NCBI GenBank assembly: GCA_964016885.1
Contig: OZ024741.1
Location: 160,394,001-160,458,000, forward strand
Source: Eledone cirrhosa
Lineage: Eukaryota
DNA: 64,000 bases
Direction: 5' to 3'
How positions within the stretch are numbered: position 1 is the first letter of the stretch; every line of letters starts with the position of its first letter. Of this stretch, positions 2,788-63,116 are shown piece after piece. A program made the translations under genes and the position numbers. The notes under the pieces were generated by a model. It did not search any database, was not told where the DNA came from, and saw nothing but the letters and a program-made list of their open reading frames with translations.

Positions 2788-3142
2788 ACTGATACAAGTA
2801 TACAAGTGTTCGAATTGCAAATCACCAAGTTAGCTAGGTTGAAAAATACTATTTTAAAATAATATGGTTTGCCTGTCTCGATTTAAAGTAACGAATAGTA
2901 AAGGTACGAATTTCCTGGATACCCGCAGAAGAGCACAGGGATAGTGAATTTCACTTAATAATTGTTGCGAAACAAATTTAGAATTTGTCCGGGTATCAGG
3001 GCCATTGCCAATATAGGTTTGTTATTTTTATTGATTTATTACTTTAAATCGAGACAGGCAAACCATATTATTTTAAATTAGTATTTTTCAACCTCGCTAA
3101 CTTGGTCATTTGCAATTCGAAAACATGTATACTTGTATCGGT
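2788..3142. repeat. Fold-back element: ~104-bp inverted arms (2788-2891 / 3039-3142) around an HHR-containing loop
   Basis: gatacaagtatacaagtgttcgaattgcaaat...tttaaagtaa is reverse-complementary to ttactttaaatc...tatacttgtatc. Confidence 0.9.
2918..2997 (+). ncRNA. Type I hammerhead ribozyme with CAGAAGA (U4A) core
   Basis: Stem I GATACCCG/CGGGTATC (8 bp), CAGAAGA, stem II GCA..TGC, GAAA, stem III CAAATT/AATTTG, GUC site ending at 2989. Confidence 0.8.
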
Positions 3143-3158
3143 CTTTTGTATATATATA

Positions 3159-3230
<72 letters not shown>

Positions 3231-3233
<3 letters not shown>

Positions 3234-4279
3234 CTGGAGAATGGTGGAAAAAGTCAGAAAGGAATTGGAAGATTCGGGATTCGACTACGAAGCAACATCA
3301 GAGAGGAAAACACATGATCGACGATCTGACGCCTTCAGAACACCCGAGTTCGTCGCTGAAGTTCAGGATATCATCAACAATGAACCTAGCAAGTCGATGC
3401 GTGCAAGGGAGAAAGGCGTGGATGAAAAGCTCATTAGGCTGGTGGTACATGAAGACATTCGCTACGTTTCATACAAGATGAGGAAAGGACAATTTCTGTC
3501 AAAGGCGATGCAAGAAAAGCGACTGAAGTACGCAAAGAAGCTGATCAACAAGTTGAAACACCCACTGGAGCCAGACATGCTGTGGTTTTTCTCCGACGAG
3601 AAAAACTTCTGCGAAGACCAGAAGATCAACTCCCAGAACAACAGGTGGCTCGCTGTCTCATCCAAAGACGTGCCCAGAGTCATGCAGACAAAGTTTCCAG
3701 CGATAACATTCGTCTTAGGTGTTGTCAGCAGTCAAGGTGACGTCATGCCACCTCACTTCTTCCCTGGAGGCCTCAGGCTGAACACCGATGGCTACATCTG
3801 CGTTCTGAGCGAGGTAGTAAAGCTCTGGATCGACCAGGTAGCTGCAGGTAGGCCGTACGTGTGGCAGCAAGACTCAGCGCCCTGCCATACCAGCCGAAAG
3901 ACCCAACCCTGGCTGTCAGAGAACTTCGTCGACCACACTTCATCTGACATCTGGCCTCCCAGCTCGCCTAACTGCAACCCCCTCGACTTCTTTGTGTGGG
4001 GCGCAGTGGAACGAGATACCAACAGATCTAGCTACAATACGAAAGACGATCTGAAGGCCAGGATCACAAGTACCTTTAGGGGCCTAAATCGGGGAACAGT
4101 GACGAATGCCTGTAACCGGTTCCAAGGCCACGTCAATGGCGGGTTTATCGAGTGAGATCGAAAGAGCAAATCGTGAAGACAAACTGACCCAAGTTTGATA
4201 AATATATCTTAAAATATGAAACTACTGTGTTACTTTTTCCTAGACAGTAATCTTGCGAACAAATATCGTCCGCACCCTG
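3231..4279 (+). mobile_element. Tc1/mariner DD37D (maT-type) transposon, 5'-truncated; transposase frame 3241-4155
   Basis: FSDEKNF...WQQDSAPCH...WPPSSPNCNPLDF with 37 residues between the second and third D. The 3' TIR ends ...cgtccgcaccctg|TA. Confidence 0.92.
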
Positions 4280-4965: not shown

Positions 4966-7880
4966 GTGAGACATATGATACAGTTAGTGTAATGACGTCA
5001 TGTATTACAGGTGCGAGATATGACACAGGTAGTGTAATGACGTCATGTGTTACAGGTGAGAAATGTAACGCAGGTAGTGTAATGACGACGTGTTACAGGT
5101 GAGAGATATGATACAGGTAGTGTAATGACGTTATGTATTACAGGTAAGAGATATGATACAGGTAGTGCAATGACGTTATGTATTATAGGTGAGAGATATG
5201 ATACACGTAGTATAATGACGTCATGTATTACAGGTAAGAAATGTGACACGGATAGTGTAATTAAATCCTGTATTACGGGTGAGAGATATCACACAGGTAG
5301 TGTAATTTTGTCACTTATTACAGGTACGAGCCATGTGACGGGTAGTTTACTGAAGCTCTATATTACAGGTGCCGGATGTGACAAAGGATGTATAATAATT
5401 TCTCGTGTTGCAGGTGCTAGATATGACACATGTTGTATAATGATTTCCCGTGTTATAGGTGAGAGATATGACACATGTTGTATAATGATTTCCCGTGTTA
5501 TAGGTGAGAGATATGACACAAGTAGTATAATGATTTCCCGTGTTATAGGTGAGAGATATGACACAAGTAGTATAATGATTTACCGTGTTATAGGTGATAG
5601 ATATGACATAAGTAGTGTAATGATTTACCGTGTTATAGGTGAGAGATATCACACAAGTAGTATAATGATTTCCCGTGTTATAGGTGAGAGATATGACACA
5701 AGTAGTGTAATGATTTCCCGTGTTATAGGTGAGAGATATGACACAAGTAGTGTAATGATTTCCCGTGTTATAGGTGAGAGATATGACATAAGTAGTGAAA
5801 TGATTTACCGTGTTATAGGTGAGAGATATGACACAGGTAGTGTAATGATTTCCCGTGTTATAGGTGAGAGATATGACACAAGTAGTGTAATGATTTCCCG
5901 TGTTAAAGGTGAGAGATATGACACAGGTAGTGTAATTATTTCCCGTGTTATAGGTAAGAGATATGACATAAGTAGTGTAATGATTTACCGTGTTATAGGT
6001 GAGAGATATGACACAGGTAGTGTAATGATTTCCCGTGTTATAGGTGAGAGATATGACATAAGTAGTGTAATGATTTACCGTGTTATAGGTGAGAGATATG
6101 ACACAGGTAGTGTAATGATTTACCGTGTTATAGGTGAGAGATATGACACAGGTAGTATAATGATTTACCGTGTTATAGGTGAAAGATATGACACAGGTAG
6201 TGTAATGATTTCCCGTGTTATAGGTGAGAGATATGACACAGGTAGTGTAATGATTTCCCGTGTTATAGGTGAGAGATATGACATAAGTAATGTAATGATT
6301 TACCGTGTTATAGGTGAGAGATATGACACAGGTAGTGTAATGATTTCCCGTGTTATAGGTGAGAGATATGACATAAGTAGTGTAATGATTTACCGTGTTA
6401 TAGGTGAGAGATATGACACAGGTAGTATAATGATTTACCGTGTTATAGGTGAGAGATATGACACAGGTAGTGTAATGATTTCCCGTGTTATAGGTGAGAG
6501 ATATGACACAAGTAGTGTAATGATTTACCGTGTTAAAGGTGAGAGATATGACACAAGTAGTGTAATGATTTACCGTGTTAAAGGTGAGAGATATGACACA
6601 TGTAGTGTAATGATTTACCGTGTTATAGGTGAGAGATATGACACAGGTAGTGTAATGATTTACCGTGTTATAGGTGAGAGATATGACACAGGTAGTGTAA
6701 TGATTTACCGTGTTATAGGTGAGAGATATGACACAAGTAGTGTAATGATTTACCGTGTTAAAGGTGAGAGATATGACACAAGTAGTGTAATGATTTACCG
6801 TGTTAAAGGTGAGAGATATGACACAAGTAGTGTAATGATTTACCGTGTTAAAGGTGAGAGATATGACACATGTAGTGTAATGATTTACCGTGTTATAGGT
6901 GAGAGATATGACACAAGTAGTGTAATGATTTACCGTGTTAAAGGTGAGAGATATGACACATGTAGTGTAATGATTTACCGTGTTATAGGTGAGAGATATG
7001 ACACAGGTAGTGTAATGATTTACCGTGTTATAGGTGAGAGATATGACACAGGTAGTGTAATGATTTACCGTGTTATAGGTGAGAGATATGACACATGTTG
7101 TATAATGATTACCCGTGTTATAGGTGAGAGATATGACACAGGTAGTATAACGATTTCCCGTGTTATAGGTGAGAGATATGACACATGTTGTATAATGATT
7201 TCCCGTGTTATAGGTGAGAGATATGACACAGGTAGTATAACGATTTACCGTGTTATAGGTGAGAGATATGACACATGTTGTATAATGATTTCCCGTGTTA
7301 TAGGTGAGAGATATGACACAGGTAGTATAACGATTTCCCGTGTTATAGGTGAGAGATATGACACATGTTGTATAATGATTTCCCGTGTTATAGGTGAGAG
7401 ATATGACACAGGTAGTGTAATGATTTACCGTGTTATAGGTGCTAGATATGACACATGTTGTATAATGATTTCCCGTGTTATAGGTGAGAGATATGACACA
7501 GGTAGTATAACGATTTCCCGTGTTATAGGTGAGAGATATGACACATGTTGTATAATGATTTCCCGTGTTATAGGTGAGAGATATGACACAGGTAGTGTAA
7601 TGATTTACCGTGTTATAGGTGAGAGATATGACACAGGTAGTGTAATGATTTACCGTGTTATAGGTGAGAGATATGACACAGGTAGTGTAATGATTTACCG
7701 TGTTATAGGTGAGAGATATGACACAGGTAGTGTAATGATTTCCCGTGTTATAGGTGAGAGATATGACACAGGTAATATAATGATTTACCGTGTTATAGGT
7801 GAAAGATATGACACAGGTAGTATAATGATTTACCGTGTTATAGGTCAGAGATATGACACAGGTAGTGTAATAAAATCATG
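4966..7880 (+). repeat. 45-bp minisatellite, ~65 units, open in one frame (ORF 5125-7899, 15-aa repeat ERYDTGSVMISRVIG)
   Basis: Consensus gagagatatgacacaggtagtgtaatgattt(c/a)ccgtgttataggt; 5' units are diverged and the core is homogenised. Confidence 0.97.
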
Positions 7881-12520: not shown

Positions 12521-12575
12521 TATGCAAATGAGGCTAAACAGCCGATGTATACTTCAGAAAATACTATATATTTTC
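12521..12575 (+). promoter_or_regulatory. Candidate snRNA-type promoter cassette (octamer, box, TATA)
   Basis: TATGCAAATgAGGCTaaaCAGCCG...TATATA, with 43 nt from octamer to TATA; matches 45049-45097. Confidence 0.4.
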
Positions 12576-12739
12576 AACAGTTATATATAAACGAGTGGCA
12601 ATAACCTGGAGACATGTTGACTGTTCGTTGATGCTACGGTTAGAAGGAACGGATGATGATGATCATAAAAAAACATAGTGTAGTGAGGCTGTTTGCTTGC
12701 AAACAAATCGAATATTATTATTATTAATGTGGATAGGAT

Positions 12740-13411: not shown

Positions 13412-13859
<448 letters not shown>

Positions 13860-13942: not shown

Positions 13943-14425
<483 letters not shown>

Positions 14426-14456
14426 TCATAACTTGTGTGTTACACCTCTATTCTTT

Positions 14457-14530
<74 letters not shown>

Positions 14531-16483: not shown

Positions 16484-17143
16484 TAAGTATGTATACGTAG
16501 ATACATATATGTATACAGACGTACAGTAGTATATATATATATATATATATACATACATGCACATATATATATATGTACGTATGGATTCACCGAACATTTA
16601 TTATAATTCTCGGTGTGTTTGTAAACAAACATCCCGAATTAAGCCGTACAGTGTCTAGCAACCATCGTTGCTCATTTGTTCAACACTGACAAAGGAACGC
16701 TGTACTAGCTTCAAGCTTATTAGCTATCGTCAGCAACGTATACCTTCCTGTCAGATGGTTGAACGTCTGCTCAGCCGTTAATATGCATAAGGAAAGTATA
16801 TACTTTCAGACGTTCAACCATCTGGCAGGAAGGTATACGTTGCTGACGATAGCTAATAAGCTTGAAACTAGTTCAGCGTTCCTTTGTCAGTGTTGAACAA
16901 ATGATCAACGATGGTTGCTAGACACTGTACGGCTTAATTCGGGATGTTTGTTTACAAACACACCGAGCATTATAATAAATGTTCGGTGAATCCATACGTA
17001 CATATATATATGTGTGTGCATGTATGTATGTATATACATACTACTGTACGTCTGTATACATATATGTATGTACGTATACATACTTATATTTAAGTAACAG
17101 CCGTTCTAAGAGTGAGAAATGAAATTTCGTTTCATTTTTTCCA
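16484..17143. mobile_element. Fold-back copy of the HHR / promoter-cassette element (arms 16484-16769 / 16807-17087)
   Basis: ~280-bp inverted arms; homologous to 45062-45465. Confidence 0.92.
16838..16878 (+). ncRNA. Minimal hammerhead ribozyme (mirror copy 16698-16738 on the minus strand)
   Basis: CGTTG-CTGACGA-T-AGC taataa GCT-T-GAAA-CTAG-TT-CAGCG. Confidence 0.82.
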
Positions 17144-17633
17144 ATATATATATATATGATGGACAGGTCACGCGTGAATAACTGCAGACCGTGGACGTAT
17201 TTGACTGGTCATTGAAATATGTATCACAGCATTATCAGTAAAGGATTTAACATCTGAAACTACTTCGCATTTTCTCATTATATATACTAGTAGAAAAACC
17301 ACCTTTCGGTGTATCATAACCGTTATATCATAACCGGAAGTATTGACATTTGAAAATTTTTAAAGTGAATCTTAAAATAAGCAATCATTATATATAAGAA
17401 TATTTATGTTTAATCAACAGCTATGAAATTTAGTACATAAGTAAGTATAGCGAATATAGTAAGTATAGCGAATTTTTTAAAATTTATTTTAAAACTTTTT
17501 CTCTATTTGCTAGACCTTGATTTTATATGTTCTTGCTTGTTGATTTATTAACCCGCCATAGAACCACATTGGCATACGGTTGGATAATACTTGTTTCCCT
17601 ATATGTATTTTTTACACGTAGGAATTCATACTT

Positions 17634-19508: not shown

Positions 19509-19600
19509 AAAAAAAAGACGCGTATAGACGTACATGGAACACGAAGCCACATCTTTGGTTTGCCGGACCAATGTGTTACCATTACACCAACACACCACAC
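19509..19600 (-). other. tRNA-like Pol III unit followed by a poly-T run; partial inverted copy at 19667-19715
   Basis: Minus strand gtggtgtgttggtgtaatggtaacacattggtccggcaaaccaaagatgtggcttcgtgttcca...tttttttt. A box present, B box degenerate. Confidence 0.5.
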
Positions 19601-22801: not shown

Positions 22802-22917
22802 ATAGGAAAAAGTATGACTCCGACGGCAGAGCTCAAGCCGTTTCGACGGCTATTTCTGGACCAGAAATAGCCGTCGAAACGGCTTGAGCTCTGCCGTCGG
22901 AGTCATACTTTTTCCTA
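22802..22917. repeat. Perfect palindrome (~58-bp arms, 1-nt centre) built from the 3' half of a hammerhead
   Basis: ataggaaaaagtatgactccgacggc...tatttctgg-a-ccagaaata...gccgtcggagtcatactttttcctat. The adjacent 22730-22800 is the reverse complement of 13321-13392. Confidence 0.95.
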
Positions 22918-34690: not shown

Positions 34691-35239
34691 ACACATATAT
34701 ACATATTTATCTTATTTATACACATCGGTGATTTCCCCAAAGTAGAGCAGACTAAGAAACCTGCTGCAGGGTAGCAGCTTACATCTCTTTATTAAGAACT
34801 GGGTTGATGACAACACCACCATCACCATCACCATCACCAACATCGACAAGACCATCATCAACACCACCAACATCGTCATCACCACCATCACCATTAACAT
34901 CATGACTACCAGCATCACCATCTCCAACACTATCACCAACACCAACATCGCCAAGACGTCACCAATACCGTTACCATCACCATCACCAACACTATCAACA
35001 CTATCACCAACATCACAACCACCAGCATCAACATCTCCAACACCATCACCAACACTACCAACACCACTAACACCAACACCAACAACACCACCAACACCAA
35101 CACCACCAACACCATCACCAACACCACCAACACCACTAACACCACCATCACCACCAACACCACCAACACTACCAACACCAACAACAAGAGCATCAGAAGC
35201 ACCACATTTGCTGCAGCAATAGCAAAAACAAAGCGCTTA

Positions 35240-36846
35240 TTGAATATTGATATTGATATTAGCGATAAAGAAGAACAGTTGGCACAAACATGGAGGCTAA
35301 TTAAACGGGAGAAGTCCTGGGCAAACCTGACCATCCCGGACGAGGCAATAGTAGCCATGCAAAGGAGGACGGTGTTATTTCGATGTATTTCGGTGCAGAC
35401 ACGAAAAGTGGAACTTGCCAGCCAAGCAGAGGTCGAGGTTGCTTTGGAGTATATCGGAAGTAACATAGAGTACAAAGCAAGAGGCAAACAGTTCGGTACC
35501 ATCTCGGTACTATTCAAAACCGAGGCCCTCGCTATTAAGCACTCGGTGACCCCCTGCAGAACGGAACGCATTATCATGCATCCGTCCTACATGGGTAAAA
35601 TGACAGTAAAGGTACGCATTCCCAGCATCCCACCAGGAATGAATATATGGTGGCTGCTGGGATGCGTAATCGAGGAGGGGACAGACACTACCCTCCTGGA
35701 TATCAAAAGGACAGAGAGAGAGGACTGGTCCGGAATGGATTTGGAGATTCTTCTCCAAATGAAACCGGAGGACATGAACAACATCCCGGATTTTGCCCGC
35801 CTGCAGGACGGGACAACAATCCAACTAATCATTGACGGAAGAAGGCCACGCTGCTTCGTCTGCGGGGAAGCAACGCATCTGCAAGCCTTCTGCCCTCAGC
35901 GCAAAAATGCAGGGGGTCGCAAACCTCCTTTGTTGCCAACGCCAGTGTCAGCACGGAAAGCTGCACCACCACCACCACCAAAAACAACACCAACAAAAAC
36001 ACGGACACCAACATCATAAACAGCCGGATCAACACCAACACCAAAACCAATCCACGGGGAAAACGAGGAAAGCTCTCCCACTACCCCTACCCTACCCCCC
36101 CCCCCCCACCACCACCACCCCACCCCAAATTATACACATAGACAAAACAATAAACGCACACACAGACACAGAGACACTCACAGCCACAGACCCTTTGTCT
36201 TCCAGCAGCGAAGATGAAGGAAAATCCAAAAGTGCAAAAAAAACAGAGAAAACTTACAAAAAAAAAGCCCCAACAAAACACAAAAACATACACAACAAAT
36301 ACAGACACCACTAACGCAAACACTTCCCCAATAACATCAGCACCATCAGCAACATCGACACCACCTCCACAATCCCCGAAACGCAAACAACCTAAACAAA
36401 CACAAGTACAAATCAACACACAAATACCTGAAATTGCAGACACCACATCTACAACAAACACAGACATACCCGAAACAACACCACCAAAACCATCGCCACC
36501 ACAGTCACCAAAACGAAAACAAATAAAACCACACCAACAGAATGTTAAAAACTTCGTGCTTGTCAGAAGGGTCAACGATAAACTGATGGCCCTCTTAGCA
36601 CGAAGCGAGGACATTCAAACAGAGGGAGAGATTTTTGAAATGAGCACATGTTGCGTGCCAGAAGATTTGATTCTGGTCCGAATGTCACTCAATTCCTTCA
36701 AAGAAATTCGAGAGAGCTTTCCTCAAGACGTGGGAACCCCGAATGTGAAACCCACATCAATACTTTTAAAGGGGTTCCCAAAAGAAACCCCACCAACCAT
36801 GGAGGTCGAACAACCCGACCTTCACAATACCCCGGGAGGTAAGTAA
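35240..36846 (+). pseudogene. Tx1-like ORF1 (gag-like), frameshifted, with P/T-rich tracts
   Basis: DGRRPRCFVCGEATHLQAFCP is a CX2CX4HX4C knuckle. Confidence 0.8.
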
Positions 36847-36875
36847 ACCTTCCCTCTCTCTCTTAGCTTACCAAT

Positions 36876-39800
36876 ATGGCCATATTAAGAGTAGGAAGTT
36901 TAAATGTTCGCGGCCTGGGGTCACCCTGGAAGCAGGGTCGCCTGCTCAACGACCTCAGGTCGCTGGAAATGGATGTGATTGCCGTCAGCGAGACCAGAAT
37001 TTCCGACACGCGCGCACTAGCCCCCATTTTCGACGACTATCAGATCTTCGCATCTGTTAGCAGACCGGGAATGGGGGTGGGGTGGCAGTGCTGTTTAGGA
37101 AAGGACTGGATCTCGGGGTAAGGTCGATCTTCCGGGACTCGGATGGTAAGTTGGTGGTCTTGGATGTGAGCAGTAGCGAAGGTGGTGCCTTTAGACTGCT
37201 GGTTGTCTACGCCCCTACAGGGGCCGGACGACCGGACTTCTTTAGGCGCCTGGAGACCTTTCTGGGTACGTCTCGCCCTTTACTGTTAGCGGGGGACTGG
37301 AATGGCATCTTAGACGCACGCTGGGGTTGTGTGGAAGTAGCCGATAGGAGCGGGGGGTGCAAAAGCCTCAAGTACCGACTCAGCCAGTTCCAACTGTCAG
37401 ACAGGTATCGACTAGATTTCCCCAATGTGCCAATGTGGACATGGACCAACCGAATGGGGTCATCTAGATCGTATATAGACAGGATCTTCATTAGGAAAAT
37501 AGATAGAAATAGTGTAGGCTGCCCACTTTTTAAAATGGTCGCCTATTCAGATCACAAATTTGTAATCTGTACGGTCGACCTAGATAAAACGCGTAGGTTA
37601 GGACCTGGTTACTGGAAGCTGAACATGTCATTTCCGGCACGTAAGGCTTACAGGGACCGTGTCAACAATTTAGTTAAGCAAAAGTTGACAGGGGGAATCA
37701 TCAACAATAGATGGTGGGGGTCTCTCAAAAGAGAGATTAGAGTAACCTCAATAGAGTTCAGCAAAGAACTAGCGTTAGAGAAAAATAGAAAGGAGGGGGA
37801 GCTGGTAGATAAGTTAGACGAGGCTATTTGTAGTGGCATTGCAACTGACGTGCTAGCGGCGAGAATGGCATTAGACCATTTCTTCAATGCCAAACACGAA
37901 GGTTGCATTGTCAGAGCTAAGGCGCGTGCGCTGAGAAACGAGGGAACCAAAGCTGTTCGATGGGCCCGCGTGGCGGAGGTGCAGCGTGGTAATAAAACCA
38001 CAATTCGGTCTTTGATAGAACCGAGACGGACACGAGACAAGCGATTCCAAGCGGATGTGTGAGGCCTTTCGCCAGCACTTTGCTCGGTTGTTCGGGGAGA
38101 GTGGCGAGTCAGAGAGAGTAGTGGATTTCAGTCCTTACCTTGACGGCTTGCTGCGGATCTCGACGGTCGACGCTGAGCGCTGCGAAAGGCCAATTACTTC
38201 AGCCGAAATTCAGGACGCCCTTGTCGGCTGCATGAGGCACAAGTCACCCGGTTTGGATGGCCTGCCCTACGAGCTTTACGTAAATATGCCAGACTTGTTC
38301 TCCGAACTCCTCGAAGCACTCTACTGCAACTGGCAGCAGAATGGGAGTATTCCCAGTTCTGTGAGCATGGGAGTGGTGACGCTGATAAGGAAAGACGATA
38401 ACAAGAGGGATACATTAGACAACTTCAGGCCCATAACTCTGCTCAACACAGAGTTTAAGATTTTGGCCAAGGTGTTAGCAAAGAGATTGGCGCTTGTCGT
38501 CGAGGATTTGGTTGGGGAGGCGCAAACTTGCGCAATCCCAGCCAGGTCCATACACGACAATCTCCACCTCATGCGATACATCATAGAGAGGGTAGGGTGT
38601 AAACCTGGCTTCAGTGGGGCACTGATCAATTTAGATCAATCGAAAGCATTCGATAGGGTCGACCATCGGTATCTGGAGTTTGTCCTCAAAGCAGCTGGCT
38701 TCGGCCCTGTCTTTAGAAGCTGGATCGCTGCAATGCACAGCGGCACACGCTCGGTGGTCAAGGTTAATGGCCACCTCTCGGAACCATTTCGGCTCTCCCG
38801 ATCGGTCCGTCAAGGGTGCCCTCTCTCTTCCCTTCTGTACGTATTGACTCTCGAGCCTTTACTGCGGAAGCTGAAACTGTTGCAGGGCATCCCGCTCGAA
38901 CCGGGACGTGGAAGGGCGGTGTCAGCTTATGCGGACGACATCGCCGTGATGGTGTCGAACACCTCAGAAATCGAGGTGGTCGGCACCTTATTGAAGGAAT
39001 ATGAAAGGTTGACAGGAGCCAAACTTAACCCGGAAAAGTCAGTAGGCTTGTAGCTCGGAACCTGGAGAGGCAAGCCCATGCCGTCCAACAGCGTCGTGGG
39101 GCGCTGGACAGACGGACCGGTAAAGTTGCTCGGGGTTTGGTTCGGACCAGACCTCCAGGTGGAAAAGAATTGGGACGAGGTAACGAGCAGAGTCGCCAGT
39201 CTCACACAAAAATGGACTGGGAGGAAGCTATCACTGAAAGGTTGCGCGGAGGTGGCGAATGCGTACATCGCGTCCGTCATCTACTACCGCCTGACCGTCG
39301 TGCCTTGCCCCCGTCCGCGTCTCGTCAAGTTGGAACAGCTCCTCTTCAAATTCTTGTGGAGGGGACAAGTTCCGTTGGTGAGGCGGTCCATCTGCTGCCA
39401 GCACCCTCTACGCGGAGGGCTGGGCATGCCGTGGCTAATGATGCGCAGACATGCGTTGAGGCTGCGACATCTCCAGATATTCTGCCTCAACGGTGAACAG
39501 GTGTGGTCGCCGTTTATCAGACGGGCCTTTCCGCAGCTCATTTCTTTGACTGAGCTGCAGTCCTGGGTCTAGAAGAGACCGAGACTGGGTGACTGGCACC
39601 TGGAATGTTGCCAGGCACTCACTGCCATCTACCAAGCGGGCAATGCGATCAATGGAACTTGCACTCTCGAGTTCTATAGAGGATTAGTGGTGGGCAAGTG
39701 CGATGACGCACTCGGAGAAGCTTTGGGCCTCGACGAAGTCGAACTGACCAGTCTGTACCGGAGGACTTTTGAGCCGGGGACGATGGACAATTTCCAGAAA

Positions 39801-44415: not shown

Positions 44416-44485
<70 letters not shown>

Positions 44486-44548
44486 ATATATGATATATTA
44501 TTTATATAAATAGATATATATCTATACATATATATGTGATATATTATT

Positions 44549-44600
<52 letters not shown>

Positions 44601-45048
44601 AATGTAAGTATGTATGTATATGTACATACATATATGTATACAGACGTACAGTAGCATGTATATATATATATTTATATATACATACAGGCACACATATATA
44701 TATGTACGTATCAGTTTACCGAACATTTATTGTAATGTTCGCTTTGTTCGTGGTTGCCTGAACACTGTACGGCGTAAATAAGGCTGCCCGTTTGTTTACA
44801 AACGAACAAAGCGAACATTATAATAAATGTTCGGTAAACTGATACGTACATATATATATGTGTGCCTGTACTATATATATATATATATATATATACATGC
44901 TACTGTAAGTCTGTATACATATATGTATGTACGTATACATACATACTTACATTTAAGTAAGTGCCGTACTAAGAGTGAGAAATGAAATTTCGTTTCATTC
45001 TATTCCATTTATCGTTTTCGGTGCGCCTGGCCGACTGAACTCACTCGA

Positions 45049-45100
45049 TATGCAAATTAGGCTGCTCAGCCGTTAATTTTCATAAGGAAAGTATATACTT
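45049..45100 (+). promoter_or_regulatory. Candidate snRNA-type (U6-like) promoter cassette
   Basis: ATGCAAAT at 45050, AGGCTgctCAGCCG, TATATA at 45092. The box and TATA are retained at 16767-16802. Confidence 0.45.
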
Positions 45101-45132
45101 TCGAACGTTCAACCATCTGGCAGAAAGGTATA

Positions 45133-45173
45133 CGGTGCTGACGATAGCTAACAATCTTGAAACTAGTACATCA
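45133..45173 (+). ncRNA. Minimal hammerhead ribozyme
   Basis: CGGTG-CTGACGA-T-AGC taacaa TCT-T-GAAA-CTAG-TA-CATCA. Confidence 0.75.
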
Positions 45174-45687
45174 TTCCTGTGTCAGTGTTGAACAAAAAGG
45201 TGACGTGGTTGCCTGAACACCGTACGGCGTAAATAAGGCTGTCCGTTTGTTTACAAACGAACAAAGCGAACATTATAATAAATGTTCGGTAAACTGATAC
45301 GTACATATATATATGTGTGCCTGTATGTATATATATATATATATATATACATGCTACTGTACGTCTGTATACATATATGTATGTACGTATACATACATAC
45401 TTACATTTAAGTAAGTGCCGTATTAAGAGTGAGAAATGAAATTTCGTTTCATTCTATTCCATTTATATATATATATATATATATGATATATTATGTATAT
45501 GTGTGCGTGTATATGTAAATATATATCTCGTCTCATCTCTAGCTACACTACATTTAAAGTTAAATATTGTAACAATAGATAGATATTACAAGCAAGAGAG
45601 AGAAAGGTTTAACTACAATAGATGACGGCTCTACCTAAGTAAAACCGCTAGGGAAATCAATGTTTCTTATTGGGATAATAATAATAG

Positions 45688-56047: not shown

Positions 56048-56112
56048 ATTTTATTATACATATTTCAGAGGCACTGAGCTATCTCCAACAGTACGTCCTC
56101 ATCAGATAAAAT
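56048..56112 (-). ncRNA. Hammerhead ribozyme
   Basis: ATTTTAT-CTGATGA-G..gtactg/cagtgc..T-GAAA-T ATGT A-TA-ATAAAAT; perfect 7-bp stem I. Confidence 0.78.
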
Positions 56113-56399: not shown

Positions 56400-57218
<819 letters not shown>

Positions 57219-57223
<5 letters not shown>

Positions 57224-57629
57224 TTAATAAAAGGAATTCCAACTTTGTCTGATTTATACTCGTTTTATTTACAATCCTTTAAAATTTATAATGGTATTAG
57301 AATGAAATAGTATGGTAGAATATTAAATGTTAAGTGTTAATAAATGTTAAGTGTTAATTGAACAAGTACTTTCATGCTTTCGCAATCTTCAGGTTCCTAT
57401 TGTGTGGTGACAGTCAAGTTTGCAATTTTCAACAGTTGAAAATTGCAAACTTTACTGTCACCACAGAATATGAACCTGAAGATTGCGAAAGCATGAAAGT
57501 ACTTGTTCAATTAACACATAACATTTAATATTCTACCATGCTATTTCATTCTAATACCATTATAAATTTTAAAGGATTGTAAATAAAACAAGTAAATCAG
57601 ACAAAGTTGGAATTCCTTTTATTAATATA
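57219..57629. repeat. Palindrome with ~200-bp arms, 1-nt centre at 57434
   Basis: tatattaataaaaggaattccaactttgtc...gcaattttcaac-a-gttgaaaattgc...gacaaagttggaattccttttattaatata. Confidence 0.96.
57471..57509 (+). ncRNA. Minimal hammerhead ribozyme (mirror copy 57360-57396 on the minus strand)
   Basis: TGAAC-CTGAAGA-T-TGC gaaa GCA-T-GAAA-GTAC-TT-GTTCA. Confidence 0.83.
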
Positions 57630-57786
57630 ATCTTCTATACACAATCATACACACCCGTCTATGAGGACCGAATAAATTAAATTAACCGATATAAAAGACA
57701 CAGAAGCGAAAAGCGAAAACCAACCAAACAGTGAGTGTGTTCTGTTATTAATTCTGGCAATATTACACAAATATGACCCTCCCTAA

Positions 57787-60739: not shown

Positions 60740-61207
60740 ATTATATCTAACTTTGAGTCAAAATAGATAGAAGATATCTGAATTAATTTCCAATACCATC
60801 GTCACATCTTCTACACTATCAGCTGATTTGCATTTTTTTGCACCTTTTAGTATGGCGGATATTTAAATATATTTACATTACCAATAATATTTAATACGAC
60901 CCTTTAGTAGTATATGCAGGAAGTGCTGGACTCTGAAAAAGATTTCTTCTAGTTGTTTATAAATTTGCACCTTTTTCAGTAACCCCTAATATTTTAATAT
61001 TATTATAAGACTTTAAATAATATGTTTGCCATCCTAAAATGGAGAAATTTCAATTTTTAAAAATTAAAAGTTTTTTTAACTAGTTAAGTTTTTCCAAATA
61101 TCTAAAATTAAAGTTAATTTAAGTACTTTTTGTAATAAAAAAAACTTAATTTCTCTTGTTTATTAATGTCATATTAAAAATGTTAACTGTAGATAAATAA
61201 CCTTGAT

Positions 61208-63116
61208 ATGATGTCTACTGCAAAGAAGCTGAAGTTAGATACCAGCAGTAAGGTTAGACAGTGGTGTGATGATTATGTTAGATATGGATTTCAAAAAGCT
61301 GACACTAAAAAAGATACACCAGATCAGCCCATGTGTTTGCTATGTTCAAAAGTTCTATCAAATAGCTGTTTAAATCCTGCAAAACTTAAAAGACACCTTG
61401 ATACTAATCACACCAATGATAAAAGCAAGTCACTGGAATACTTTACTTCGCTGAAAAACAACATCAAAAAATCACAAGCTAATATGTATGACTTGTTTTG
61501 TAAAAAGTCAGATAGAAATAAAGCTTTAACAAGAACATCTTTTGAAATTTCACATTTGATTGGTAAAAACAAGAAACCATTTACATTAGGAGAACAGTTA
61601 ATTCTGCCAAGTATAAAAATTGCTACAGAGAATCTTTTTGAAAGCTGCAGTATTAAGGACAAAGAAAAATTAAGCCAGTTACCATTGTCAGCAAATACCG
61701 TAAAAAGAAGGATAATTGATATTTCTTCTGATATAGAAAATCAGATACTAACTGCACTAAAGAAAAGCACATGTTTTGGTCTGCAAGTGGACGAAACTAC
61801 GGATATTAATAACAAGGCTCAATTAATTTGCTATGTACGGTTTGTAGACCTTGATAAAAAAGAATTAGTAGAAGAGTATTTGTTTTGTCTGGCACACAAC
61901 TAAAGGTCAAGACATCACAACTAAAGGTCAAGATATATTCAATAAAATTGAAGAGTATTTTTTTTTAAATGGTGTATCTTGGAGCAAGTTGACTTCAATA
62001 ACAACAGATGGAGCAGCTGCAATGACTGGTAAAAATTCTGGTTTGATTGCAAAAATTAAAGAATAGACCCCAAATTGTATTTCAAATCATTGTAGGATTC
62101 ATTGAGAGGTTTTGTGTTCAAAAAAATTCAAAGACAGAGATGCTCAAATATTAAATGACCAGCTGAAAGACATTGTCAAAATTATCAATTTGATCCATGC
62201 AAGAGCAAAAAATTCTAGAATGTTTGAATCTATTTGTGAATCTTCTGGAAGTAATTATAATAGATTGTTATTGAACAATGATGTGCGTTGGCTGTCTTTT
62301 GGGGATGCTATGAAGAGAGTTTTTGAACTGAGAGAAGAAATAATAGTTTTCCTAAAAAAACAGAATGATGAAAGAGCAAGTGTATTAGAAACCAATGAAT
62401 GGAATGTGCAACTCGCTTATTTAGTAGACATTTTTGGTGAACTGAACAAACTAAATAAGTGTCTTCAGGGTAACAATGCAGATATTTTTACTTCAATCAA
62501 TTTTATTACATATTTTCAATCAAAATTAAACATCTTTATAAAAAGAATTGAATCGGACAATTACTCATTACTTTCAAACCTTGAAATAGAGCTTAAAAAG
62601 AGAGAAGATCTTTACTCCAGCAATCTAAAGAAGATTATTCTTTCTCATTTAAATGTGCTTTCCACAAGTTTTTCAGATTATTTTGACTTGATGGAAAAAG
62701 ATATTGTTAGCGGAAATTTATGGATAAAAAACCCGTTCACCGAAATCGAGCAGTTAATGTCAGAAAATGACGCTGGAAATTGTAAAAATTTACTACCTGC
62801 ACAATGCTTACATCAGTTGATGGATTTGAATTCAAACGAAGACCTGAAAGTGATATTCGAAAGCAGAAAGAAAGAACTATGGATCGACTTATTCTTGATT
62901 GGGTAGTTTAATGAAATCAGCCAACTTGCATTGAAGTATTTGACTTTATTCCCATCTAGCTACTTGTGCGAAGGGTTTTCGCAGTTGGTAGAAATCTGCA
63001 CAAAGAAGATGAATAAACTGTCAGCAATTGACGAGTGTATGAGACTGGCATTAACTAGTGTTGAACCTCGATTTTCTAAACTCACTGATGAGGCGCAGCA
63101 GCAGAAAAGCCACTAG
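61208..63116 (+). pseudogene. hAT (Buster/Charlie, ZBED5/ZBED8-like) transposase with stops and frameshifts
   Basis: YVRYGF, PMCLLC..LKRHLDTNH (BED finger), PLSANTVKRRI, LQVDETTD, TTDGAAAM, VRWLS, FPSSYLCE.FS. Breaks near 61900, 62065, 62104, 62900 and 62970. Confidence 0.93.

Follow-up and report, generated by a model that had tools for sequence, protein, structure and literature searches.

Hammerhead retrozymes of Eledone cirrhosa with a putative built-in promoter resembling those of host small nuclear RNA genes

How does a short repeat that encodes no protein obtain transcripts of its own and spread through a genome? This question is raised by a locus of Eledone cirrhosa, in a stretch of 64,000 nt (assembly GCA_964016885.1, contig OZ024741.1, positions 160,394,001–160,458,000 of the forward strand) that we call the window and to which coordinates refer below. 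The locus holds a complete unit of a retrozyme, a non-coding tandem repeat with a hammerhead ribozyme, of a subfamily that we call A (45012–45466, plus strand, 455 nt). Judged from its sequence, this unit likely drives its own RNA, is predicted to cut that RNA itself, and is likely spread into (TA)n tracts by the borrowed enzyme of a Penelope-like element (PLE). Our comparisons place it in a radiation of several retrozyme families whose units contain a putative promoter of the small nuclear RNA (snRNA) type, matched to the host and of hybrid geometry. The promoter cassette and the ribozyme were found together in every intact unit of several families.

The longest ATG-initiated open reading frame (ORF) in a virtual dimer of the complete unit is 47 aa. 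Upstream lies a direct copy truncated at its 5' end (44749–45012, plus strand, unit positions 193–455), which matches 45204–45466 at 97.7% and begins downstream of the ribozyme. An inverted partial arm (44599–44751, minus strand, unit positions 246–398, 98% to 45257–45409) precedes it. (TA)n tracts enclose the insertion on the left (44420–44598) and at the 3' junction (45464–45500). The inverted arm stops beside (TA)n at the first of two fixed 3' ends (site 1, see below), and the direct copy ends at the second (site 2). The initial annotation had described head-to-tail copies and an inverted partial copy between (TA)n tracts; that layout holds, with the period corrected from 453 nt to 454–455 nt. 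The identification as a retrozyme is supported by the hammerhead, the arrays and the lack of coding capacity. The genomic features of retrozymes without long terminal repeats (non-LTR retrozymes) are all present, namely a type I hammerhead, tandem pairs (at the level of the family), non-coding units and PLEs in the same genome, and the units have a GC content of 0.36–0.38, within the limit of <45% applied to non-LTR retrozymes.

The octamer-type element of the unit, TATGCAAATTAG (45049–45060, plus strand), is identical to a 12-mer in a host U6 promoter (L032) and in both tRNA-Sec promoters. It is followed by the slot of a possible second element, CTCAGC (45065–45070, plus strand), and by a TATA-like box, TATATACT (45092–45099, plus strand), which lies 42 nt past the octamer and 27 nt past CTCAGC. 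All motif positions reported previously were recovered (ATGCAAAT at 45050, AGGCTGCTCAGCCG at 45059, TATATA at 45092). The claim of an snRNA-gene-type cassette had been tied to an alignment with host promoters; we ran this alignment, and the cassette matches. The general layout of snRNA promoters has been described (PMC5493778, PMC11892584). In seven host promoters of RNA polymerase III (Pol III), comprising three U6 promoter types, U6atac, MRP and two tRNA-Sec, the sequence TATGCAAAT(T/G)AG or a one-base variant occupies -76 to -79 and TATA follows at -30/-31. In contrast, the octamer-type element occurred in 0 of 21 host snRNA loci of RNA polymerase II (Pol II), a set of five U1, three U2, seven U5, three U4, U12 and two U11 loci that includes some near-identical neighbours. 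An ATCAGT-type box is present at -56 to -59 in 15 of these 21 loci, and a TATA-like box near -30 in nearly all. The genes of 7SK and RNase P carry the ATCAGT box 33–34 nt ahead of TATA (-64/-67), and the host SRP gene has neither the octamer element nor the ATCAGT box. The octamer element is also missing from the seven U6 retrocopies read (of 14) and from five U6atac retrocopies. Thus, the cassette is, by sequence match, a host promoter signal inside the retrozyme unit, with the octamer as a proximal element, unlike the distal octamer of the vertebrate type.

These comparisons also show two kinds of proximal snRNA promoter element in the host, the octamer-type 12-mer near -77 (L031–L033, L258, L284, L460, L461) versus the ATCAGT box (L043–L058, L433–L451, L059, L285). 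Many host snRNA genes share TTACCTCCCTT near -260, and the Pol II genes also share AATTAA near -88.

The geometry of the cassette combines features of both host classes. The distance from octamer to TATA is 46–48 nt in all seven host promoters, 42 nt in subfamilies A and B, 41–43 nt in families C, D, F and G, and 47 nt in family E; the U6-class spacing of 46–48 nt is found only in family E and a few rare families. The exact U6-type geometry suggested by the initial annotation therefore does not apply, as the octamer–TATA distance is 42 nt rather than 46–48 nt and the box–TATA distance of 27 nt is that of U1 and U2. Indeed, the box lies 27–28 nt ahead of TATA in A, B, D, F and G and 26–28 nt in the host Pol II genes, versus 33–34 nt in 7SK and RNase P. 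Counted from the octamer start, ATCAGT stands exactly 15 nt on in family G, and A has CTCAGC in that same slot, the sequence previously called a box; we regard it as the presumed equivalent of the host box. A matrix derived from host genes places its best site at +15 in A, B, G and a relic at 12522, with scores that are modest overall; the match to the box sequence is good in G, modest in A and B and poor in C and D. CTCAGC in A ranks top of 25 positions with a modest score of 3.4. From the host TATA at -30/-31, transcription of the window unit is predicted to start at 45119–45123 (plus strand), 27 to 31 nt past TATA.

Is the cassette peculiar to this subfamily? A search of the genome with an octamer plus TATA pattern, written to leave out most A and B units, gave 10,060 matches against 575 for the reversed control (overlapping matches counted). 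The loci read from these matches were hammerhead repeats of families C, D, E and F, plus one chance match. Adding the ribozyme core to the pattern gave 3,230 matches against 0 in the control, and brought in families G and H. Family C is a distant relative of A (alignment z 32). Outside the ribozyme, by contrast, families D, E, F and G have bodies that match A poorly or cannot be aligned with it (z 0.1–7.8). The shared cassette may go back either to common descent or to repeated capture. Cassette hairpins are predicted in A, B, C, D, F and G, and in the window unit TATGCAAATTAG (45049–45060) doubles as the 5' arm of such an RNA hairpin. The octamer arm is nearly fixed across families while the partner arm is family-specific, which implies that the sequence itself is conserved and not just its pairing. 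The cassette hence reads as a DNA signal under sequence constraint which, if the predicted folds are right, also lies inside structured RNA, as a promoter-bearing circle would need.

The pattern of cassette plus core with U6 spacing had just 180 matches, and many among the 100 listed belong to family E. This family (L464–L482) and the elements at L470, L476 and L481 are old, low-copy hammerhead families with exact U6 spacing. For family G, an octamer in L162 was rejected since it sits in an inverted arm, and the true G cassette was taken from L262 and L404–L432. In a metagenome scan (39 of 64 parts), 117 loci were retrieved, four of which have a full hammerhead behind the cassette and derive from two unrelated elements; the remaining loci may be no more than chance matches. 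Two finds from other organisms, a single locus (L329:489–662, minus strand) and a repeated element resembling the pseudo-long terminal repeat (pLTR) of PLEs (L300, L314, L321, L328, L402), have an octamer-type 12-mer upstream of a hammerhead. The combination of promoter and hammerhead may thus exist in other animals.

The hammerhead of the window unit (45119–45183, plus strand) is of type I, with a bulged helix I, a helix II and a 2-bp helix III closed by a palindromic loop, and with cleavage predicted after A45168. Its parts were confirmed where the initial annotation had placed them (core CTGACGA 45138–45144, GAAA 45159–45162, GTA ending at 45168), and so were the T4 at 45015 and the T6 at 17135–17140. 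The term 'minimal', in the sense of PMC4209133, does not fit, given the bulged extended helix I and the 2-bp helix III. Covariation over ten sequences of A, B, C and F (D and G fell out of register in a wider alignment) found 97.9% of the cells paired and, in 8 of 14 pairs, substitutions of both partners. The covariation score was reached by 0 of 500 shuffles, a control inflated by the relatedness of the sequences, and slid control structures were ~40% paired. Of 84 copies sampled, 75 retain an intact core. Hammerheads with a short palindromic helix III act mainly as dimers (PMC4209133, PMC7229834). The window copy has two private changes that weaken its stems, G to T at 45155 and G to A at 45173, where 49 of 51 subfamily A ribozymes read have G at both sites. 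Because of these two changes and the single ribozyme at the locus, the window copy is likely a dead-end daughter with a damaged ribozyme. The ribozyme folded by itself did not stand out (z -0.2 to -0.9), and the Rfam scan reported no hammerhead family for the unit or among the 150 matches listed for the window, many of which were microRNA matches to TA repeats.

In family G (L404–L432), which has a perfect ATCAGT box, helix III of the ribozyme is extended to 3 bp with a loop of 4 nt, and helix I has 7 bp. From this modelled structure, its hammerhead is likely active as a monomer.

Copy numbers are high. Across the 3.0-Gb genome, 21,946 occurrences were counted for a 20-mer from the 3' half of the unit and 20,326 for a 24-mer from the cassette, against 0 for each reversed control. 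The 30 best subfamily A copies are 98–100% alike over the query. An unbiased set of 59 loci, drawn from the first 100 listed places of contig C1 with 11 overlapping loci dropped, consists mainly of subfamily B. Unit lengths range from 420 to 520 nt across families, with 466–469 nt in the arrays of family C. Tandem pairs with at least two intact ribozymes were seen at 11 of the 59 loci (arrays at, for instance, L211 and L192), and pure arrays run to 29 units in C and at least seven in A. Circular monomers are predicted to fold at z -5.4 to -9.3 (40 shuffles), values that are inflated by TA palindromes. An abundant B subfamily (L192, L109–L119) has an 8-nt deletion past TATA and ATGCAAATTGG in place of the usual octamer flank; one array of this subfamily has ATGCATATTGG there instead.

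How do these units move? The initial annotation proposed mobilisation by PLEs, and the insertion footprints agree. Of 94 terminal 3' ends, 31 lie near unit position 398 and 41 near 455, so that 72 of 94 fall at two sites, a count into which a duplicated segment of L200 enters more than once; the 5' ends are scattered. Subfamily B likewise has fixed 3' ends, at unit positions 370 and 426. Where an end does not continue into a further unit, it often runs into (TA)n, as seen for 18 of 40 such ends at site 1 and for 27 of 32 at the second site; arms inverted 5' to 5' are present in 23 of 59 loci. Two fixed 3' ends, variable 5' ends, inverted arms and an AT-rich target together make up the signature of PLE-type insertion. 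The reverse transcriptase (RT) of PLEs starts at two adjacent sites, which results in a 'tail', and cuts AT-rich DNA (PMC11167929); targeting of (TA)n has been reported for PLEs (PMC8557442). By analogy with PMC11167929, the boundaries of the segment at 45410–45465 (plus strand), a 'tail' with a terminal hairpin between unit positions 398 and 455, are the predicted sites where reverse transcription starts. Autonomous PLEs co-occur in the genome, with open frames of 938 and 1096 aa that combine RT and GIY-YIG domains. We take these frames to be Neptune-like on account of their CxxC linker.

The 5' ends are less informative. An apparent excess at unit position 1 proved to be an artefact of the minimum match length of 35 nt, and there is no pile-up of retrozyme 5' ends at the cleavage site. 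Six of 71 B-type 5' ends (L187, L195, L199, L177, L208, L176) lie at positions 112–118, just ahead of the ribozyme core and near the predicted start; this cluster is suggestive only, and may mark either the start site or a stall of reverse transcription.

Two hybrid loci join a retrozyme to a PLE. At L179:890–1675, a PLE pLTR and a B array, each of them truncated, meet 5' to 5' and are bounded by (TA)n on either outer side, and at L232:1109–1970 the end of a PLE coding region abuts a C unit, again 5' to 5'. These junctions suggest a single insertion event from two templates, and two cases prove nothing. An attempt to name the partner PLE by likeness of its 3' end failed: 13 of 14 nt are shared with one family, which is not significant over 42 comparisons.

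Which polymerase would use such a promoter, if it is used at all? The evidence inclines us, by no more than a shade beyond even chances, to the view that the built-in promoter is used by Pol II, which is slightly more likely than use by Pol III. The runs of T bear directly on this choice. The unit of A has only T4 runs, B has T6 and C has T5–T6, and the runs of B and C lie upstream of the next promoter. The latter must be read through, since daughters would otherwise not inherit a promoter. The initial annotation had stressed that 45122–45465 lacks a T4; that is correct, with a second T4 at 45077, and yet the absence is no more than chance, as 48.9% of 2000 dinucleotide shuffles have none either, and with it falls the argument for Pol III drawn from the T-runs. 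Transcription by Pol III from a compact type-3 promoter of the U6 class is nevertheless possible, if distinctly less probable in our estimation. The unit-end T4–T6 would then be leaky terminators, and rare read-through would produce promoter-bearing multimers and circles. This would suit an element found in seven host Pol III promoters and 0 of 21 Pol II loci, the exact U6 spacing of 47 nt in family E, the T-runs of B and C near the fixed 3' ends with none mid-body, and host Pol III terminators of T6 or longer, which imply that T4–T6 could leak; the schistosome Sm-alpha provides a Pol III precedent (PMC6765202). Against it stand a spacing 4–6 nt below that of all seven host octamer promoters, the small number of cassette-plus-core matches with U6 spacing (see above), the T6–T8 run directly past the ribozyme in four of nine family E copies read, and the T6 read-through that B copies of at least two units require. 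A promoter in Pol II use has its own difficulties. A 3' box and an AATTAA element near -88, two features of Pol II snRNA genes, were looked for in the A, B and C units and neither motif was found. Further points weigh against our preferred view: the octamer is confined to Pol III genes among the host genes examined; the ATCAGT-like box is weak in A and scores below zero at its slot in C, D, E and H; the sequences of the TATA-like boxes (TATATACT, CATATAAC) depart from the consensus; both promoter boxes fall in predicted RNA hairpins; the distal TTACCTCCCTT-type element was not seen in the unit (by eye); and the B subfamily with the deletion after TATA and the altered octamer flank is successful. 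Two intact ribozymes in tandem are present at only 11 of 59 loci, the covariation controls and circular-fold scores are inflated as described above, and the 3' end of the unit is only weakly like any PLE end (best p 0.01 of 42 comparisons). Finally, the sequence of the PSE (proximal sequence element) is reported to set the choice of polymerase in Drosophila (PMC8406779), so that spacing may not decide.

The unit might also have no working promoter, its octamer and TATA words being hairpin arms or inherited passengers and its expression being due to read-through from host genes, as a 2020 review proposes for retrozymes (PMC7761336). The predicted hairpins around both motifs and a possible common ancestor of the families would fit this explanation. 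Yet, an arm identical to a host 11–12-mer is kept across bodies that do not align while its partner changes, the octamer–TATA distance is held at 41–43 or 47 nt, and ribozyme cores behind the cassette far exceed the control, which makes the explanation improbable. Still less credible, to a degree that we would call very unlikely, is that the unit is a solo or tandem pLTR of an autonomous PLE family outside our sample. Tail, inversion and (TA)n are indeed PLE signatures, in Xenopus 24 of 57 retrozyme families match transposable elements, mainly pLTRs (10.64898/2026.07.22.740005), and our sample comprised 50 GIY-YIG loci of 10,597 candidates. However, at these 50 loci no pLTR aligns to the unit past its AT-rich part, and the PLE pLTRs read have CCAAT-type motifs and lack the cassette. 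Full-length unit matches at L144, L160 and L161 look like separately inserted copies. PLE coding fragments occur in seven of 212 element loci, a junction scan of these 212 found no A, B or C unit directly after a PLE ORF, and pure arrays reach the lengths given above. Nowhere among these 212 element loci and the 50 GIY-YIG loci does a unit flank an RT/GIY-YIG ORF in sense. For the PLE families sampled, the unit is therefore not their pLTR, a finding that the initial annotation had named as one that would refute it.

A more specific history is conceivable, and we offer it tentatively: ribozyme RNAs captured a U6-class promoter that was then shortened by half a helical turn, which switched it from Pol III to Pol II. 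A shift from Pol III to Pol II has been proposed for a 7SK-like gene (PMC8406779). If such a switch occurred, the polymerase would read through the T-runs and the promoter of the unit, and each cleaved or circular monomer would carry the promoter onward. The old, rare family E would have kept the U6 spacing, while the short-spaced families grew to tens of thousands of units. The elements would then be self-promoting and self-processing PLE parasites that resemble short interspersed elements (SINEs), with a promoter of the upstream type that ordinary SINEs are unable to keep.

With the built-in promoter in use, the life cycle might run as follows. SNAPc or POU-type factors and TBP would start transcription ~30 nt past TATA. 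A spacing as short as that of U1 and U2 would favour Pol II as the enzyme, and this polymerase would continue past the junction T4–T6 into the next unit and its promoter. An array would thus be transcribed from its first promoter. Two hammerheads in the resulting RNA could pair via the palindromic helix III and release monomers, which would start past the cleavage site and end with promoter sequence, so that daughters inherit the promoter. By analogy with other retrozymes, a host ligase might close the monomers into circles (PMC7229834). Nicked (TA)n would then prime cDNA synthesis by a Neptune-like RT/GIY-YIG protein, starting at one or the other fixed site. This step would yield the 5'-truncated, inverted and multi-unit insertions that make up the observed footprint, again bearing the promoter.

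Promoters inside hammerhead repeats have been met in other animals. Newt satellite 2 uses an octamer and a PSE, and the Sm-alpha element of schistosomes has a tRNA-type internal promoter. Satellite 2 is a hammerhead tandem repeat whose internal snRNA-type promoter is reported to serve Pol II (Coats, Zhang and Epstein 1994, cited in PMC2220036 and PMC6765202), and it shares with our units a short palindromic helix III that needs dimers. It differs in animal and sequence, and the Eledone cirrhosa cassette has a TATA-like box, an element of Pol III genes and a multi-family distribution. In the schistosome SINEs Sm-alpha and Sj-alpha, every unit likewise places a promoter ahead of a hammerhead; each unit is transcribed from the one upstream of it, and cleaved monomers hold the promoter at their 3' end, as we propose here (PMC6765202). 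Unlike our upstream-type elements with octamer, box and TATA, Sm-alpha is transcribed by Pol III.

Metazoan non-LTR retrozymes (Cervera and de la Pena 2020, PMC7229834; Li et al. 2026, 10.64898/2026.07.22.740005) are similarly ORF-less, AT-rich tandems with a type I hammerhead, occurring as dimers to long arrays alongside PLEs, with strongly self-paired predicted circles. Their reported RNAs measure 170–400 nt, against 420–520 nt for our genomic units. Many families of Xenopus have a matching pLTR, in contrast to the Eledone cirrhosa unit, for which none was found in the PLEs sampled. In the 2020 review, metazoan retrozymes are said to seem promoterless and without a motif that points to a partner (PMC7761336); the putative host-matched snRNA-type promoter inside our units would be contrary to this. 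PLEs of the Neptune and Poseidon clades share two 3' ends with a tail, inverted 5' truncation, microsatellite or AT-rich targets and a hammerhead within the repeat (PMC11167929, PMC8557442, PMC4209133). Compared with the PLEs described there, the retrozyme has no ORF, its tail measures 56–57 nt versus 30–40 nt, and its putative promoter differs from the pLTRs that we read. Host type-3 Pol III promoters resemble the cassette in having TATGCAAAT(T/G)AG followed by a TATA-type box, and differ in spacing (46–48 versus 42 nt), in having no counterpart to the ATCAGT-like box, and in the long T terminator that the unit lacks. Among the records listed by our searches of the open literature, none describes these families or a retrozyme with a U6-class element, and the words 'hammerhead', 'ribozyme' and 'retrozyme' are absent from the main text of a recent octopus repeat annotation (PMC13282606).

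Our results would add to the two scattered precedents, in newt and schistosomes, a system that comprises many families. They make the questions of promoter and partner testable in one genome, the former through the cassette and the latter through footprints and two hybrid junctions that point toward Neptune-like PLEs. The natural series of octamer–TATA distances, 47 versus 42–43 nt, offers a test of how invertebrate snRNA promoters choose between Pol II and Pol III. As a by-product, the U6-class and U1-class promoter elements of this animal have been defined, which is useful for small-RNA expression constructs.

The window holds further relatives of the retrozyme. A sister insertion of subfamily B (16484–17157, plus strand, ~83% alike) consists of an inverted arm (16484–16766) and a direct copy from 16767 that is cut right after the octamer and carries the T6 at 17135–17140. 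A decayed relative of the F/G type (12521–12575, plus strand) has kept the octamer, with a TATA-like box 43 nt on; the stretch at 12521–12700 also contains its broken ribozyme core, followed by a SINE-like repeat. Other hammerhead-like motifs with a long helix II, one as an inverted pair, lie at 13621–13810 and 56055–56105 (minus strand), and the octamer cassette is absent within 110 nt upstream of them. Pieces of three autonomous PLE families are present at 1–1194 (a GIY-YIG end with pLTR), 13965–14498 and 57142–57662 (inverted pLTR pairs).

Elsewhere in the window, a broken element at 34898–39572 (plus strand) has a zinc-knuckle ORF and endonuclease and RT frames, motifs from which we presume that it is related to long interspersed elements (LINE-like). 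Transposase-like frames are found at 3082–4155 and 61193–62906 (both plus strand), which we take from motifs in their translations to be Tc1/mariner-like and hAT-like, respectively. A 45-bp tandem repeat of 64.6 copies occupies 4966–7871, a tRNA match over the Rfam cut-off lies at 19526–19596 (minus strand), and a long inverted repeat at 22809–22911.

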